A stretch of 33,074 bases of DNA from a virus (taxonomy: Duplodnaviria; Heunggongvirae; Uroviricota; Caudoviricetes). Below the pieces are notes generated by a model, which saw only the letters and a list, made by a program, of their open reading frames with translations, was not told where the DNA came from and ran no database searches. The position numbers were made by a program, and so were the translations under genes. This document shows positions 5,739 to 25,836 of this stretch, in pieces; position 1 is the first letter of the stretch, and each line of letters opens with the position of its first letter. Location of the stretch: IMG/VR virus record IMGVR_UViG_2737471830_000002, one strand, 5' to 3'.

Positions 5739-6195
5739 TCTTTAGCTCCTCGTATTTTGAGCGCGGTAACTGATAAATCGTGATGCCTACAGGCTTTCCA
5801 TTGCTGGTATAAGCATCATCAAGGTGACCAACACGGGTAGCGCCAAGCAAACGGATAATTGCCCGTCCGTATTTCGTTGTGTCAGGAACCATAGTGATGC
5901 TGTTAAGGAATGGTGAGTTTTCGAGAAGCCATTTGCAGAATAATCGATGCCCTTGCAGTGCATATTCACCACGGAATCCGGGGTCGTACACCGCATGGCA
6001 TTCAACAACGCTATGCCAGAAGTGACGCACTTCATGAACTCCAGCCAGCACTAATCCTTCGTAGATGCCGAGGTATACCGCATCAGGCTTGATGTAGTAT
6101 TTATCTCCACTGTCTACGATATTTCCCGTGTTTGCCGGGTTGTTGAGGAATTCTGCAAGCTTCACCGGATTATCGATGAGCTTTATTTCCATCAC
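5713..6195 (-). CDS. P22 gp14-position protein (head completion / DNA stabilization)
   Basis: 160-aa ORF between the gp7-like and tail needle genes; synteny only. Confidence 0.5.
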
Positions 6196-7040
6196 TGCTC
6201 CGCAATGATTTTGATGGTTGTGGCAGTAAACGCCGCACCATTTGACTGAATGGTTAACGTGCTGCCATTTGTGGCAAGAAAGCCGTCTTTATCCACGCTG
6301 AAGAACGTAGCTAACAAGATGTTATCAGTTGTTGTCGCCGAGTTGCGACTGCTTACCAGTGTGTCAGGAACAGAGCCGGAAAAGGTTAGCTGCATTGACC
6401 TGTTGGCGGTTCCGCTGGGCCACGTCCCGACGATCGACAGCTTGAAGAACAAGGTTTTGTTCTCGTTGAACACAACCATCTTGTTGTTAACGGTGTCGAA
6501 GAATGGTGCCAACGTGCCGGATGACGGCGTGAGCGTTTTCAGCAGGCTAACAAGGTTGATCGGCGCTGTCGGGATGGTTACAGATACGCCAGAGTAAACA
6601 ACCTCTGACTTCTTGCGAGTAGTGGCATACTCCAGAGCATCGATGCGCGTTTCATGGTCTGAAACCTGCGATTCCAGCGACTGAACTCTGGTATCAAGCG
6701 ACGCAATATCGCTTTCATTCTTAGCGATTCGCGTTTCATGTTCCTGAAGAGTTAATTCTGCCTGGCTGATTCGCTCCTCATGATTAACAAGCGTTGCTTC
6801 CGCAGCAGAAATTCGCTGCTCATGGTCAGCGAGAATCACATCCTGCTCATCGTTCCTGACTTGTGCGTCATAAGCGCCCTGTCCGGCCTCGTTGGCCTTG
6901 TTAGCCACGTTACCAACATCAGTGCCCTGTGCGATAACGTAAAGCAGATACGACTGCGAGAAGATATTGCGTGGAAGAACTGATGTATCGATCCGCGTAG
7001 CCTGAATGATTACCGGCACATTGAGATTCGAATCCGCCAT
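6192..7040 (-). CDS. Tail needle protein (P22 gp26-like) with extended C-terminal domain
   Basis: N-terminus [43 protein letters not shown]...[16 protein letters not shown] matches P22 gp26; coiled-coil heptads follow; 282 aa. Confidence 0.8.
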
Positions 7041-8458
7041 TACTCAATCCTTATCTGAGCGCCAGACAGAGTGACAGGTGACTTCGTGATAACGCGCAAT
7101 TTGAAGCCGACATTTTTCCTGATGCGCCCGACTCGCTTCCACAAAACACGTTTGTCGTAAACGAACGGTTCATTCTGTTCAATCATCTGCTCACGTCCGT
7201 AATTTATGCCGTCAGTGGTTGCAGAGAGAAAAAGGCGGTCAGCGTACTGAGCAACACCCGTCGATGATTCCACCTCCAGATCAAAGCATCTGGCGTTATC
7301 TGCTTTGAAGAGTGGAGTAAACAGCAGGTGTTCCTGTTGAAGCCCATACTGACTGCTGATATCGAACTGCAATTTCCCGGTCACCGATTCCAGCTTATCG
7401 CCGCACGTTATCTGATTGCCTTCGTAAATGAAGTCGATAGCGCGGTACACATCGTCATACAGGCCTGTTTTCAGCACACACCATTGCGGACCATTGGCGC
7501 TTGAAGATGCGTCGTACACGAGAACATGGCGAGGAAGATGGATAACCAGCAATTCATGAGCATCAAAACGCAGCGATTCCATTACGCCATCAGCCAGTTC
7601 ATCAGCAGTGTAGGAGCGTAGTATTTTCTCAATGCTCGCGCTGGCGATTGGTGATACCTGACCGGAGCCGATGATATATACAGACGGCGCACCTGTTGCC
7701 GGATTGCTGATGAACGCATACGAATCAGCAAACGGCGTTTTGCAGTAAGTCCCGGCAATGCCTTTCTGCACCATCAGCGATGGCTGTGCGACATACAAAG
7801 CAGCACCAACTGTGGTTGCACCAGTCAGGGAGAAATATTCAATCGTCGATGAGCCAAAGCAGACGATGAAGTCTCGCCATGTTCCGATGCCGATGATGCC
7901 GTCAGGCTGTGATTCTGCCCGATATTGTGCGCTGTAGCGGTCAGGATGCGATTCGTCTTCAAGATCAGTGATAAACCATGAATCAGTACCGTCTTTTGAC
8001 CACGCATAACGCCCACGTAAGCGCGTAATGTCACGAACAGAACCTAGCTCATACTGCGTAAATCCACTGTCTGTAGGCCAGTTTGAGACGGTTTTAACCG
8101 TGCCATCATAGCGATACTCGACCAGTTGACCATTAACGCCTACCGCCTGTGATGTCCGACCATGCGCCATTGATACACGACCACTTCCGTCGACGTCACC
8201 GACTTCGCTTTCGCCTTTGTAGAGCTTGCCGCCACACACGCGATAAACAGCACTCTGCGCCATGTTGTACTCGACGCCTCGAGATATACCGTTCACATCA
8301 GAACGTTTGGCAATGCCCGGGAATGAGCGAAGATATCCGCTGCTGTTCAGGATTTCTTTGGGTGTAGCCAACATATTCACTGGCAGATAGTCGATATAGT
8401 CGGCGTTTCGAAAGTCTTTGCCGACACCTTTCATAAGCGGAAGTTGCTGAATCGGCAT
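7040..8458 (-). CDS. Tail hub protein (P22 gp10-like)
   Basis: 472-aa ORF, same length as P22 gp10, between gp26-like and gp4-like genes. Confidence 0.7.
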
Positions 8459-8958
8459 TATTCGCTCCCGTTATCGCAAGGTTCCTTTCGGTGGAAGTAA
8501 TTCCAACCATTCCACTTCGCCAACTGGTTACCACTACCAACAGGCATACGGTTTGGATAATCGGACTTACATTTAGCGGCTTTTGCTCTGTCCATTGCAG
8601 ACAGTTTGACGAGTCGCTCTTTCCCGTATCTGGCAGTGGTTATAAGTTTTGCAGACGCTTCCAGCGCATAATCCGGAGCAATGCGGCAGGCAAGGTTGAA
8701 AATGACGGCATTGATAGCGTTATTTGATAAGCCGTGTTCATCGCCAGGATCTGGAGCGACATCTGCATCAGCGAAAATGTAGCCAACGTTGATACCTGGT
8801 GACGCATCACCGCCAAGCCATTCAGCCATCATCATTTCAAGGTCGTTGACGCCGTCTTCCATAGACTGCGGTTCGACATCGGTTAACGTGGCATTTGATG
8901 CCACACCGAGCTTACGTAATGCCGCAAGGACTAAATCACCCTTCGTTGTCAGGTTCAT
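8458..8958 (-). CDS. Tail accessory protein (P22 gp4-like)
   Basis: Start at [33 protein letters not shown] (ATG at 8958), matching the P22 gp4 N-terminus; the longer ORF-track start with SQ repeats is an upstream extension. Confidence 0.8.
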
Positions 8959-9547
8959 CTGCTGCCGCCTTAGGTTTTCGACCAGGCTTTTTACGCTGTT
9001 TTTCTTCTGGCTCTGGCTCTGGCTCTGGCTCTGGCTCTGCAATAGCCGGACGCAAACTCAGGAGTCGTCCAAGAACATCATTTGCTTCATGACCATCCCA
9101 CTCTTTCCCGAACTCAAGCTCAGTACCTTCAGGAAGGAACTCGATTTCTTCAACAGGTAGGTGATAAGTGATTTCGCCTTCTGGAGTGGTGATACCAGCA
9201 ATGATCCAGCCATCCCACTCTTCACCGTCACTGTGTTTGCGAGACCACCACGAAAGCTCAGCGTAAGCATGCATCAGCGATGAGAAGAGGCGCACTCGGT
9301 GAGCGTAAAGCTCGTTAAAAGTGTGATAACCGTCGGACACTTCGCCCATATCAACTGGGTAAGTTTCACCTCCGCCAACACTGCCAATTTGATCACCAAC
9401 AAGAGGATCATCAGGAACATCGTCAGGGTGCTTATACCAGCCATTTGCTAAGTGCACAGCTACATCATCAGGATCAACGGTTTTCGTTTTCAGCTTGCGT
9501 CCCCAGATTTTGGTATCTCCGCCAGCCTGAAAAATCATTACGCTCAT
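8936..9547 (-). CDS. Hypothetical protein inserted between coat and gp4; C-terminal (EP)5 repeat and Lys/Arg-rich tail
   Basis: 203-aa ORF from ATG at 9547 (GGAGAT RBS) to 8936; no counterpart at this position in P22 as recalled. Confidence 0.5.
9009..9038. repeat. Tandem hexanucleotide repeat (GGCTCT)5 on plus strand, inside a coding region
   Basis: Five perfect tandem copies; encodes [10 protein letters not shown] in the 203-aa ORF frame. Confidence 0.8.
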
Positions 9548-9590
9548 TGGTATCTCCAATAGAAAAGGGAGCCGAAGCTCCCTCTGGTTA

Positions 9591-10886
9591 TCACGCAGTC
9601 TGGTTAGGCAGACCAACACCAATTGCCTCTGGTCGTACAGCACATGCTGAATACCACACAGCAATACGGCACTTGCCAGACAGAGTGTTGATATCACCCT
9701 GCGTTGCGAAGATGCCGTTAACACCAATACCAGGAATGCTGAAGGAGGAAGTTTTCATGCCAGCAAACAGTTCATGGGTTACCGGAATCGGCTGAGACAG
9801 CAGGCGGATTGAGTCATCAGCCCAGAACACGTTAGCGGTGGTTGTTGCCACGTTCAGAACGTTTACCGGAGTGGTATCAGCAAGAGATGTGTTTACATTA
9901 GCGTAAGCCTTCTCTTCTTTTGTCAGTGACGCGTCATCCAGTGCAATCGGTTTCGGCGTGATTTCGATGTGAGTACCATCGATCACACGGGTGATTGAGA
10001 AAGTCGCATCATCAGTAAGCACGTTCTTCGCCATCTGAGACAGGAATTTCACACCAGTGAAGCTGATTTTGTCGCCGCGCTTAAACCCGGTGGTGGAGGA
10101 TACGGTCACCGTTGCAACACGGTTGTCGACGTTCTCCTTGTTACCATCGGTATCAAGGGTGTATTCCTGCGGCTTAAACTTCTGCGCTCCAGTCACAGTT
10201 ACACCAGTAGCGGTTGACTTGGTAACTGCCGGAAGTTTCGGTGAGCGAAGAATTTCATCAAAGCCAGCAATCTGACGCTGAATAGTACCGTTGCGATACG
10301 CTTCTTCAGGAACGCGCCCAAAGATGTCACCATCTACCAGGTTGCGGCCTGCTTTGCGGTAATCGTCAGGGTTCAGGAAGTAACTGATGCCCATATCGCG
10401 GTTTAGCTCACGGGAGAACATCAGGCGCTCTGCATCAGACACAAAATCCCAGCCAGACAGGCCAGTAGATGGACCAATTGCGCGGGTATCGTGAACAACA
10501 AGCGAGCCCATTTCAGTTGCCTGTTTGGCAATCGCTGACTCAATGTTATTCGCCAGTTTTTTGGCGGATGCCTGGATGCGGCGACGGTAAGAACGCTCAT
10601 CACGCAGGTCATCTGCACGAAGCTCGAAGAAATCGTTATCCGGATCACCCATGTTGCATTTCACGGAGAGTTCCAGAATCCCGGTAGCGTTGCCAGTTAA
10701 ATCCCAGCCAGTCTGAGTTGGCGCTTCCTGCTCAACAGGCATCCACACGGTGTTGCTTGAACGTTGCATGGATTCTGCAGGAGGGGTGTATTTTGTCACT
10801 TTGGACGCCATTGGCGTCAAGTTCTGGACGGTTTCGATGATTTCATCCAGAGCATACGTGACCAGTTGACCTTCATTTAATGCCAT
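9591..10886 (-). CDS. Major coat protein (P22 gp5-like)
   Basis: 431 aa; [27 protein letters not shown]...[13 protein letters not shown]...GVGLPNQTA is near-identical along its length to P22 coat. Confidence 0.95.
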
Positions 10887-23431: not shown

Positions 23432-24249
23432 GCAATCCCCCTGTCTGCAAACTTCCCTTCCCGAACTCCCGTTAACGAGTCTTCCCTCAGCAGGTAATCA
23501 AAATCAGCCGTCCAGCCCGTGTCGTTGTCTCCGAAGTAAAACGGCTTGGCCTGATGCACAAACGCCCTGACATACGCTCTGAAACCGTCCACGTTTGGCG
23601 TTTTCAGTTGCGGGATGATTTTCTTCAGGCGGCGTTTGCGTTTCTCGTTGACCGCAACAGCGTGTGGCAGTCTGTCACCGACTTCGGTGTTGTAGGCGTT
23701 CAGGAAGGATTCGTAGTCGATTCGTTCTGCCTTGCGACGTTCAGGTTTAACCTGCCCATCGCCGCCCCCGTTAGGGGGTAAGGGGGTATTTGTATTTATT
23801 GTCTTTTGTATATTGTCTTTTGTGTTTAGCTGACTTGGCTTATACCCATTAGCTGACTTGGCTAATGTTTTATTAGCTGTTTTAGCTAATGTTAAGCTGT
23901 CCTGGCTAATCCACTGCGAAACCACCTTGTTCACTCCGATTTTCACGCCATCAGCAATGAGGAATTTACGCTCAATAAGCTGGCGCTTGGCAGCGCAAAC
24001 ATGAGTGTGATGAATACCTGTCATGGCTGCTATCTGCGTGTTTGTGAGTCGATCCATCGGCTTATTGAATCCGTATGTCTTGCGCATGATAGCGAGCATC
24101 ACCTTCAACTGCCGGACGGTTAAATCAGCCATCAGCAGACTGTCGGTAATCTCGTTAGCAACGCGCATGAAACCATCTTCGGTATCTGCCACGCGATGCT
24201 CCACGACCTCCAGTTGAGGCCTGTAATCAGCTAACTTAACGACGCCCAT
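23428..24249 (-). CDS. Replication initiation protein (P22 gp18 / lambda O-like)
   Basis: 273 aa; N-terminal HTH region; ori iterons embedded mid-gene; precedes the helicase with ATGA overlap. Confidence 0.75.
23770..23910. repeat. Putative replication origin: iterons plus AT-rich stretch inside the initiator gene
   Basis: Direct repeats TTAGCTGACTTGGCT x2, TTGTCTTTTGT x2, GGGGGTA x2, GGCTAAT x2 and an AT-rich run. Confidence 0.5.
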
Positions 24250-25119: not shown

Positions 25120-25836
25120 ATGGAAAATAAAAAATCACTGACGACAGAACAGCTCGAAGACGCTAAGCGGCTTAAGGCTTTGTATGAGTCAAAAAAGAAA
25201 GAATTGGGAATAACCCAATACTCAATTGCTGATGAACTGGGTATCACCCAAGGAGCGGTAGGGCATTATCTTAATGGCAGAAACGCGCTAAACGTTGAGG
25301 TTGCATCTGGTTTTGCACGATTGTTGCAAGTCTCAATTGCTGATTTTAGCCAGTCAATTGCTGCCAAGGTTGCAGAACAGGCAGAAAGCCTTAAGAGCGA
25401 TGCCAACGTAAGGTATGCAGGGGAATACAGAGCAGGAAAGAGGTATCCGGTGTTAAGCAGTATCCAGGCTGGCTCGTGGTGTGAAGCATGCGAACCATAC
25501 ACCATTAAAGACATAGATGTTTGGCTTGAGTCTGACGCGCATATTCAAGGTAATGCGTTCTGGCTTAAAGTGGAAGGTGATTCAATGACGGCACCGGTTG
25601 GGTTAAGCATTCCAGAGGGAACATTCGTTCTTTTCGATACCGGAAGGGAGGCGATCAACGGCAGCTTGGTCATAGCAAAACTTTCTGACTCTAACGAAGC
25701 AACATTCAAGAAGCTGATAATCGACGGCGGAAATAAATACCTCAAGGGACTTAATCCTGCATGGCCTCTCGTGCCAATCAATGGAAACTGCAAGATTATA
25801 GGCGTTGCAATTGAGACAAAACTAAGGCTGGTTTGA
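25120..25836 (+). CDS. cI: CI repressor (HTH N-domain plus S24 LexA-like autopeptidase C-domain)
   Basis: 238 aa; LTTEQLEDAKRLKALYESKKKELGITQ...AFWLKVEGDSMTAP...FKKLI parallels lambda CI including the cleavage-domain motifs. Confidence 0.9.
   Translation: MENKKSLTTEQLEDAKRLKALYESKKKELGITQYSIADELGITQGAVGHYLNGRNALNVEVASGFARLLQVSIADFSQSIAAKVAEQAESLKSDANVRYAGEYRAGKRYPVLSSIQAGSWCEACEPYTIKDIDVWLESDAHIQGNAFWLKVEGDSMTAPVGLSIPEGTFVLFDTGREAINGSLVIAKLSDSNEATFKKLIIDGGNKYLKGLNPAWPLVPINGNCKIIGVAIETKLRLV

Follow-up and report, generated by a model that had tools for sequence, protein, structure and literature searches.

The gene that lies between the coat gene and gene 4 of P22-like phages has been annotated since the genome papers of P22, ST64T, L and ε34, and Pfam already has a family for its middle domain. 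The described relatives include: (i) the Salmonella gene 6 family (ε34 gp6, g341c gp6, ST64T orf-186, L Orf186, ST104 ORF54, SE1 orf56 and the BTP1 homolog), all members of which are 186 residues long, overlap the start of gene 4 and consist of an N-domain, a WDGH domain and a basic tail, (ii) short forms of 65-88 residues (phrog_1175), which include P22 orf69, the proteins of E. coli IME10, APC_JM3.2, Dewey, Louie and HZ41, and those of many Enterobacterales prophages, and (iii) WDGH proteins (PF25311) of unrelated Listeria, Bacillus, Streptococcus, Staphylococcus, Lactococcus, Klebsiella and Erwinia phages, which share the same 98-residue domain with its invariant Asp, His, Arg and Tyr (tblastn identity of 30-78%) but are stand-alone or fused to Tad2-like, crAss001_48, Lar, DUF551 or exonuclease domains and have neither the P22-type N-domain nor the (EP)n-basic tail. 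The ε34 genome paper describes the P22 copy of gene 6 as 'partly deleted', notes that the length of gene 6 differs, and regards the P22 homolog as non-essential (PMC2629481). No role is assigned to gene 6/orf186 in that paper or in PMC8022706 ('function unknown' for phage L orf186).

The open reading frame (ORF) under study is carried by a 33,074-nucleotide stretch of Caudoviricetes DNA (IMG/VR record IMGVR_UViG_2737471830_000002; hereafter, the window). Identity and architecture mark it almost certainly as the E. coli P22-like prophage copy of a conserved, dispensable late gene (ε34 gene 6, L/ST64T orf186, ST104 orf54, P22 orf69), and none of the tests run on its identity contradicts membership in this gene 6/orf186/orf69 group. 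The features of the locus are as follows.

8458..8958, minus strand: gp4 homolog, head-tail adaptor, 166 aa (tblastn across loci; P22 gene 4 is also 166 aa)
8936..9547, minus strand: complete ORF of 203 aa plus TGA, start ATG 9547-9545 (translation)
8936..8972, minus strand: dual-use 3' end of the ORF, with the gp4 Shine-Dalgarno TAAGG at 8972-8968 and the gp4 ATG at 8958-8956 (sequence)
8969..9001, minus strand: basic patch, 6 Lys/Arg per 11 residues (read from sequence)
9006..9039, minus strand: perfect hexamer array (Tandem Repeats Finder: period 6, 5.7 copies, 100% matches, score 68)
9053..9346, minus strand: WDGH domain, aa 68-165, 98 aa, the optional middle module (Pfam PF25311, E=1.5e-39; pLDDT 93-98)
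9350..9415, minus strand: disordered acidic linker, aa 45-66 (pLDDT <50 at residues 52-59; length differs among homologs)
9416..9547, minus strand: N-terminal mini-domain, aa 1-44, beta-hairpin plus helix with a G..GW..HP signature (pLDDT 90-98; phrog_1175)
9553..9557, minus strand: Shine-Dalgarno GGAGA, 5 nt 5' of the ATG at 9547 (read from sequence)
9561..9583, minus strand: hairpin GGGAGC-UUCG-GCUCCC and U-rich run, between the coat stop and the ORF start
9591..10886, minus strand: P22-type coat protein gene, 431 aa, the upstream neighbor, stop TGA at 9593-9591 (ORF list)

The order coat, ORF, gp4, which in the window lies on one strand within the virion-assembly gene cluster, is found with the overlap in 80/80 related IMG/VR viral loci and also in P22 and ε34. 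The coat and gp4 homologs carry the RefSeq names 'P22 phage major capsid protein family protein' and 'packaged DNA stabilization gp4 family protein', respectively. Matches by tblastn lie at the same genome position in ε34, g341c, ST64T, L, ST104, SE1 and BTP1, with ~62% identity over aa 1-165 to ST64T orf-186, phage L Orf186, ε34 gene 6 and ST104 orf54, while alleles 95-100% identical to the ORF of the window occur in E. coli prophages. In P22, the slot between coat and gene 4 is filled by orf69 (NP_059631; NC_002371 6135-6344). This gene also overlaps gene 4, and its product can be aligned with the N-domain and tail of the window protein but has no WDGH domain. The initial annotation had taken the ORF for an extra gene inserted in the operon at a place where P22 has none; neither statement survives, as P22 holds a homolog and the slot is conserved across the 80 loci, with only the middle domain being optional. 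The window allele differs from the Salmonella gene 6 family in having (EP)5 and a longer acidic linker, whereas the Salmonella alleles have one EP and no repeat tract. Compared to the short forms, the slot, ribosome-binding site and hairpin context are the same, the N-domain is homologous, and (EP)n, a basic patch and an acidic tail overlapping gene 4 are present in both (over the last ~100 nt, the short forms of E. coli phages and the window hardly differ); the short forms differ in having no WDGH domain and no long linker.

Reading frame and protein modules

The ORF is a genuine protein-coding gene. The 203 codons are intact and preceded by GGAGA 5 nt from the ATG, which bears out the description of a real ORF with a good ribosome-binding site in the initial annotation, and TGGAGA also precedes the start in Dewey, APC_JM3.2 and P22 orf69. 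A homology search, which had been suggested as a check, returns a full-length match to phrog_3769 (E=1.8e-99, residues 1-201 of 203 and profile positions 1-186 of 186), a match of aa 1-44 to the short-form family phrog_1175 (E=3e-14) and the Pfam WDGH domain, for which the score is 134.7 bits (cut-off 27) over model positions 1-97 of 97. The AlphaFold2 model of the protein has a mean pLDDT of 87. Estimates of dN/dS are 0.04-0.05 for the WDGH domain, 0.1-0.3 for the N-domain and 0.2-1.1 for the acidic linker, the last being near neutral. Scans of the 203-residue protein with NCBIfam and PADLOC profiles give zero matches, a PDB sequence search with the family profile gives chance matches only (E ~0.5), no solved structures resembling the AlphaFold2 model were found, and a Foldseek search of the model against BFVD recovers other WDGH proteins only.

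Mechanical ORF listing extends the frame to a TTG at 9727, within the coat gene; the start is set at 9547 because the N-terminus of the homologs is conserved. The hairpin between the coat stop and this start corresponds to the 'putative stem_loop' annotated after gene 5 of P22, and the 61-nt segment that contains it folds at -20.3 kcal/mol (z = -2.5). A simple terminator scan made no call at the hairpin, though it folds stably, and a scan of positions 8400-10000 detects no promoter-like or terminator-like sites belonging to the ORF itself.

Four parts make up the protein: the N-terminal mini-domain comes first, then the WDGH domain in those members that have it, then the (EP)n tract as a spacer prone to slippage, and last a basic patch that leads into an acidic C-terminus. 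The N-domain is the constant module of the family and is kept in the short forms, including P22 orf69. Its residues G9, G36, W37 and P41 are invariant and H40 nearly so in a family alignment that reaches down to 27% identity, and the window protein has the signature. The WDGH domain follows the pattern SDGYH...Y-H-R...W-DGH...R, in which D72, G73, H75, Y81, H83, R84, D151, G152, H153 and R161 are invariant in the alignment and all present in the window protein; the same invariant pattern is seen across 141 diverse representatives. In the window protein, WDGH is the only domain that Pfam finds, the Tad2/DUF2829 and Acb2/Tad1 profiles being unmatched.

The basic patch is found in nearly all family members, long and short, and the C-terminal tail is modelled as extended and non-globular. 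An AT-hook was considered and rejected as a feature of the family: the window reads K-K-P-G-R-K-P-K and not the core R-G-R-P, canonical RGRP occurs in few homologs (P0032, P0044, L088), and 13 of 43 long forms are devoid of any Gly-containing basic motif. Similarly, the idea of a carrier with swappable cargo was set aside, as the best 120 matches to an N-domain profile are all short forms of <=82 residues. The N-domains of the short forms are nearest to various WDGH-bearing lineages (52-64% identity, vs ~30% to the window). Thus, the WDGH domain has been lost or gained more than once, or the modules recombine.

The hexamer tract

The initial annotation described an in-frame (GAGCCA)5 that encodes (EP)5 ahead of a Lys/Arg-rich tail, and this is what Tandem Repeats Finder and translation recover: (GAGCCA)5 at 9037-9008 is read in the frame of the ORF as (EP)5. 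For a perfect hexamer array of 34 nt, chance occurrence in 33 kb is far from expected. The predicted length-variable alleles also exist, as a comparison of copy number finds E. coli alleles with 1, 2, 3, 4 or 5 units. The number of EP units is 1-5 in near-identical E. coli alleles and 0-8 across the family, always in frame and with intact ORFs, and two pairs of alleles that are identical outside the tract differ by a single EP unit. Short forms likewise carry (EP)1-5, and in the Salmonella clade there is a single EP and a constant length of 186 aa in 46 loci.

Replication slippage would be the source of the change in copy number. Since a gain or loss of GAGCCA stays in frame, the spacer length shifts by 2 aa per step and no on/off switch results; a phase-variable contingency locus is rejected on the same grounds, i.e., the unit is 6 nt and all alleles of 1-5 units keep an intact ORF. 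The (EP)n polymorphism is ordinary slippage-driven variation of a disordered spacer, with no switching capacity. In composition, the tract resembles the (Glu-Pro)n-(Lys-Pro)m spacers of TonB type and the EP procyclin of trypanosomes, in which an (EP)n run is likewise followed by a Lys/Pro-rich basic stretch. The likeness is compositional only, as the window repeat is much shorter, has no membrane or periplasmic context and falls below the family threshold (Pfam Trypan_PARP, E=0.051, 14 bits vs a cut-off of 100).

Overlap with gp4

The ORF and gp4 overlap by 23 nt (8936-8958), in keeping with the overlap at the gp4 start that the initial annotation reported, and the gp4 Shine-Dalgarno sits in the 'PKA' codons of the ORF. 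An overlap of 17 or 23 nt is found in 80/80 loci, and CCTAAGGCGG is conserved 5' of P22 gene 4. From the conserved overlap and the CCTAAGGCGG in common with P22, it is proposed that ribosomes ending the ORF would deliver or unmask gp4 initiation. On these sequence features, the odds that the ORF is translationally coupled to gp4 are judged to be even; gp4 has a Shine-Dalgarno of its own, which counts against a need for coupling. If real, coupling would account for the constant retention of the ORF across the gap.

Candidate roles and annotation of the locus

The explanation that best fits the locus overall, with a probability of about 0.6 as a blend over its parts, is that of a conserved, dispensable gene with putative coupling to gp4 and a possible part in counter-defense or host modulation. 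Its product would be an accessory factor that is soluble, appears late in infection and stays out of the virion. The WDGH domain, with its invariant His, Asp, Arg and Tyr residues, may be the effector, either binding a ligand or acting as a catalyst, while the N-domain and basic tail would tether a partner or nucleic acid. The window protein is probably not a virion protein. Compared to P22 virions, those of ε34 show a new ~15 kDa Dec band and size differences in gp13 and the tailspike but no ~21 kDa band, though ε34 encodes the 186-residue form (PMC2629481); a low-copy virion or internal protein could have escaped these gels. The gene is a very widespread late gene, under strong purifying selection, of one of the best-studied phage groups.

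Counter-defense, taken as a claim of its own for the window protein, is tentative, and the balance lies against it. The WDGH family comprises 3555 representatives at 50% clustering, and the WDGH genes of unrelated phages are usually in early, accessory and otherwise non-homologous positions. In distant relatives, WDGH is fused to Tad2-like, Acb2/Tad1-hairpin, Lar and crAss001_48 domains, with fusions to anti-defense domains in only 5 of 141 representatives; the fusions to Tad2-like, Acb2/Tad1 and Lar are a weak hint of counter-defense and a cheap, testable lead. The early or accessory location of stand-alone WDGH genes and the many polar residues that are invariant in the domain point the same way. 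A literature search on the WDGH domain and PF25311 returned nothing relevant. The known anti-defense sponges are generally early genes, whereas the ORF is in the late operon; the timing, thus, speaks against a classical early counter-defense role. A more elaborate form of the same idea, of low probability, is that WDGH is a counter-defense module not yet characterized (e.g., one that binds or hydrolyzes an immune signal derived from a nucleotide) on a late-operon carrier of N-domain, (EP)n spacer and basic tail, which would perhaps be co-packaged or DNA-tethered to act as soon as the next infection begins, while hexamer slippage would tune the length of the spacer.

Among the rival explanations, a helper of DNA packaging or head completion, analogous to λ gpFI, is improbable. 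In such a role, the partner of the N-domain would be the procapsid, portal or gp4, and that of the basic tail would be DNA. λ gpFI is likewise small and made late, with a flexible acidic linker that connects its folded domains, and it is also dispensable under some conditions. Its gene follows the one for the major capsid protein and precedes the first one for head completion, so that λ E, FI and FII parallel the coat, ORF and gp4 of the window; this analogy is positional only. The ORF also lies with the head genes in the late operon, and its constant modules, in which a flexible spacer separates a small folded domain from a basic patch, are in line with such a helper. By contrast, alignment of the window protein to λ gpFI by hhalign yields a probability of 0.4% and no fold similarity was detected between the two; on both sequence and fold, homology to λ gpFI is thus rejected. 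The packaging and head completion of P22 have been reconstituted genetically without orf69. A helper would further leave the WDGH domain unexplained, which is also encoded in non-structural regions of unrelated phages, and P22 orf69 is non-essential in the laboratory (PMC2629481).

Quite improbable is a low-copy internal or ejected virion protein, held on the packaged DNA by its basic tail, with a WDGH domain that acts at once in the next host, e.g., against a defense system. The ORF shares the late operon with the ejection protein genes, the basic patch follows a spacer, WDGH is fused to anti-defense domains elsewhere, and an ejected protein would square a counter-defense role with late timing. 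However, the composition of the P22 virion is well characterized and is not known to include orf69. A ~21 kDa band is not among the differences reported between ε34 and P22 virions (PMC2629481). A DNA tether is further disfavored by the missing R-G-R-P core in the window and by the occurrence of any G-R/K motif in just 30 of the 43 long forms.

There is a similarly slim chance that the protein product is of little weight, the ORF being kept mainly as a translational bridge from the post-coat hairpin to the gp4 start. WDGH would then be a passenger, whether selfish or neutral, and the repeat of EP units neutral junk. Such a bridge would suit the invariant overlap with the gp4 start in 80/80 loci, the position of the gp4 Shine-Dalgarno inside the ORF, the almost neutral evolution of the linker, and the finding that the middle of the ORF is deletable, which P22 and the short forms of E. 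coli phages illustrate. It is at odds with the strong purifying selection on the WDGH domain and the N-domain, with N-domain residues that stay invariant down to 27% identity, and with a basic patch that is conserved 5' of the nucleotides required for gp4 initiation.

A capsid decoration protein or a classical moron (i.e., an inserted, self-contained gene with its own promoter and terminator that is expressed from the prophage) is very unlikely: the ORF adjoins the coat gene, is preceded by a hairpin and is missing as a long form from P22, but the only new band of ε34 virions compared to P22 is Dec, which is encoded elsewhere, no promoter-like site was found in 8400-10000, and the ORF overlaps gp4 in a slot that is filled in all relatives including P22. 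The initial annotation had offered moron, decoration or accessory protein as alternatives. Of these, accessory protein is a fair description; decoration is unlikely, given that no ~21 kDa band is reported for ε34, and a moron in the strict sense is not supported, as the scan finds no promoter-like or terminator-like site of its own and the ORF is fused by overlap to gp4.

The finding on the ORF is correct but ordinary, and its value is mostly one of correction and clean-up. Automated annotation is poor at this locus: PGAP clips the 5' end of the gene or marks pseudogene fragments, and in some phage records gp4 is drawn across the repeat. Counts that compare the gene among genomes on the basis of annotation will, thus, be wrong.

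Identity and annotation of the gene between coat and gp4

The ORF between the coat gene and gp4 is a real, long-annotated and non-essential gene with a Pfam-curated domain, and is already known. The locus is arranged as follows:

9593-9591 (-), TGA stop codon of the P22-type coat gene, from the sequence
9583-9561 (-), hairpin GGGAGC-UUCG-GCUCCC, then UUUUCU; fold of -20.3 kcal/mol, z = -2.5
9557-9553 (-), GGAGA, from the sequence
8936-9547 (-), ORF of 203 codons by translation, ATG at 9547, TGA at 8938-8936
8958 (-), ATG of the gp4 homologue (166 aa, the length of P22 gp4), which shares 23 nt with the ORF

The initial annotation read the ORF, its repeat and the gp4 overlap correctly in every particular; the observation is confirmed, and its interpretation is partly supported. 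Its statement that P22 has no gene at this place is wrong, since orf69 (6135-6344) is annotated in the P22 RefSeq record, where it is preceded by the 'putative stem_loop' that follows gene 5 and overlaps gene 4 at its other end. A longer TTG-started version (8936..9727), from a mechanical ORF listing, is rejected, as the TTG at 9727 falls within the coat gene and every homologue starts at the ATG.

Pfam WDGH (PF25311) matches residues 68-165 (E = 1.5e-39, 134.7 bits, cut-off 27 bits), while PHROG 3769 matches the full-length protein (1.8e-99) and phrog_1175 covers its first 44 residues. By tblastn of GenBank phages, homologues are found in ε34 and g341c (gene 6 in both), ST64T (orf-186), phage L (Orf186), ST104 (ORF54), SE1 (orf56) and BTP1, all at the same genomic position and with ~62% identity over residues 1-165. 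The ε34 genome paper reports that lengths vary among the gene 6 homologues, that the P22 copy has an internal deletion and that it is non-essential in P22 (PMC2629481), and phage L orf186 is described as 'detailed function unknown' (PMC8022706). Many database entries share 99-100% identity with the window allele: its cluster, P0001, has 1929 member sequences, and locus L013 is a 100% match. Locus L064 (IMGVR_UViG_2563366556_000003) carries a Salmonella-type allele of 59% identity, at coordinates that differ from those of the window.

The coat gene lies upstream and gp4 downstream in 80 of 80 IMG/VR loci encoding relatives (56-100% identical). All 80 also share an overlap of 17 or 23 nt between the ORF and the start of gp4. 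The sequence CCTAAGGCGG just before the gp4 ATG is common to the window and P22, and provides a TAAGG Shine-Dalgarno within the 'P-K-A' codons of the ORF. We infer that gp4 translation is probably coupled to termination of the ORF.

The GC-rich, stable UUCG-loop hairpin with its U-rich tail (9561-9583, minus strand) is directly 3' of the coat stop codon and is not called by a simple terminator scan. Its P22 counterpart is the 'putative stem_loop' after gene 5, noted in that record as 'similar in location to stem-loops in HK97 and lambda'. The hairpin may be an mRNA stabiliser or an attenuator, determining how strongly coat is expressed relative to the genes downstream.

Automated annotation of the coat-gp4 gap is inconsistent. 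In RefSeq E. coli chromosomes (loci L008-L012), PGAP starts the gene at internal Met67 or Met92 or reports 'incomplete' pseudogene pieces, yet the full ORF is intact. The record of E. coli phage Dewey (L001) omits the short ORF and gives gp4 197 aa by an upstream extension that runs through the repeat, read there as (QS)n; the same spurious TTG-started extension (194 aa) occurs in the window at 8458-9042 (-).

Length variation of the EP tract

Tandem Repeats Finder detects a single perfect period-6 array in the region (9006-9039, 5.7 copies, 100% matches), which is in frame as (GAGCCA)5 and encodes (EP)5. The length-variable alleles anticipated from this repeat are borne out across E. coli loci, which carry 1-5 units. 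In complete E. coli genomes, matches span 612, 606, 600, 594 and 588 nt, with 5, 4, 3, 2 and 1 GAGCCA units (one locus fetched per span) and an intact ORF in each, and 25 E. coli-type IMG/VR loci again have 1-5 units. Two pairs of alleles, L009 (3 units) with L023 (2) and L012 (5) with L015 (4), are identical outside the tract; thus, copy number changes faster than point substitution. Phase variation is rejected, as the hexamer unit keeps the reading frame at every copy number, and the tract is instead a spacer-length polymorphism. In the Salmonella clade there is only one EP, and 46 of 46 loci encode 186 aa, as expected if slippage requires at least two units. In the wider family the tract is 0-8 EP, with (EQ)n or (GT)n in occasional members; short forms of the protein also carry (EP)1-5.

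The WDGH domain and candidate functions

The AlphaFold2 model of the protein (mean pLDDT 87, input alignment of 80 sequences) predicts a β-hairpin and helix (residues 3-34), disorder (45-66), an α+β WDGH domain (67-165) and an extended C-terminal tail. Against alleles 60-85% identical, dN/dS (Nei-Gojobori) is 0.04-0.05 for the WDGH domain, 0.1-0.3 for the N-terminal mini-domain, 0.12-0.5 for the tail and 0.2-1.1 for the acidic linker.

P22 orf69 and the short ORFs (84-88 aa) of E. coli phages Dewey and APC_JM3.2 align with the window protein over its first ~45 residues and its tail, and lack the WDGH domain (alignment A2). The N-terminal domain of P22 orf69 is 52-59% identical to protein representatives P0036, P0034 and P0035 and that of APC_JM3.2 is 57-64% identical to P0046, P0049 and P0043, while each is only ~30% identical to the window. 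Since the two short-form lineages are thus closest to different WDGH-bearing lineages, either loss or gain of the WDGH domain occurred at least twice, or the modules recombine. An N-domain profile search returned 415 proteins, of which the best 120 are all short forms (<=82 aa) with no sign of alternative 'cargo' domains.

The remaining interest of the locus is the uncharacterised WDGH domain. The family is large and mostly confined to phages (3555 representatives at 50% clustering, E <= 1e-3), and a search for a solved structural relative found none. Its invariant or near-invariant polar residues (D72, H75, E79, Y81, H83, R84, H105, D107, Y128, H129, D151, H153 and R161) are unusually dense, which points to a putative ligand-binding or catalytic site. 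In unrelated phages, stand-alone WDGH genes occur in the early/accessory regions of Staphylococcus phiSP119-1 (adjoining dUTPase and methylase) and Erwinia phage Stean, and in Streptococcus IPP66 the domain is encoded in a gap between head genes. The domain is also found inside multidomain proteins of unrelated phages. Among 141 diverse representatives, Pfam-recognisable partners are crAss001_48 (6), Lar restriction alleviation (3), DUF551 (2) and, once each, Acb2/Tad1 hairpin, Tad2-like, RNase T-type exonuclease, YodL and zinc ribbons. The Tad2-like domain is anti-Thoeris. A Serratia protein with the order Tad2-like-WDGH-crAss001_48 was separately confirmed, and fusions in Serratia and metagenomic proteins are represented by P0098, P0105, P0074 and P0080 (alignment A4). 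Such fusions offer a clue to what this uncharacterised family of phage domains does.

By a weak guilt by fusion, these partners suggest counter-defence or host modulation. The ORF product is tentatively proposed (probability about 0.25-0.3) to be a soluble accessory protein made late, with WDGH as its effector and probably a role in counter-defence. A place in the late operon fits poorly with a role early in infection, unless particles carry the protein over; an ejected internal protein is itself a rival reading, and so is a mere translational bridge. A packaging helper with gpFI-like function is another, conceivable by positional analogy to λ gpFI, while homology to gpFI is rejected (hhalign probability 0.4%, no fold match). 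Two roles suggested in the initial annotation are unlikely: a decoration protein, as ε34 compared to P22 virions has a new ~15 kDa Dec band and size differences in gp13 and tailspike with no ~21 kDa band (PMC2629481), and a classical moron, as a scan of 8400-10000 gave neither promoter-like nor terminator-like sites and the ORF is fused to gp4 by overlap. An AT-hook in the tail is rejected, as the R-G-R-P core is absent from the window protein and most homologues, and only a basic patch is general.

Other features of the window

Directly downstream of the gene 10 homologue, the ORF at the P22 gene 26 (tail needle) position (6192-7040, minus strand) encodes 282 aa compared to 233 aa in P22, and its C-terminal tip domain is presumably different or extended. 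AT-rich tandem arrays lie in the prophage's early region at 23789-23893 (periods 7, 12, 14 and 24) and 25319-25363 (period 21); they might serve as origin iterons or as repeats of the operator type.
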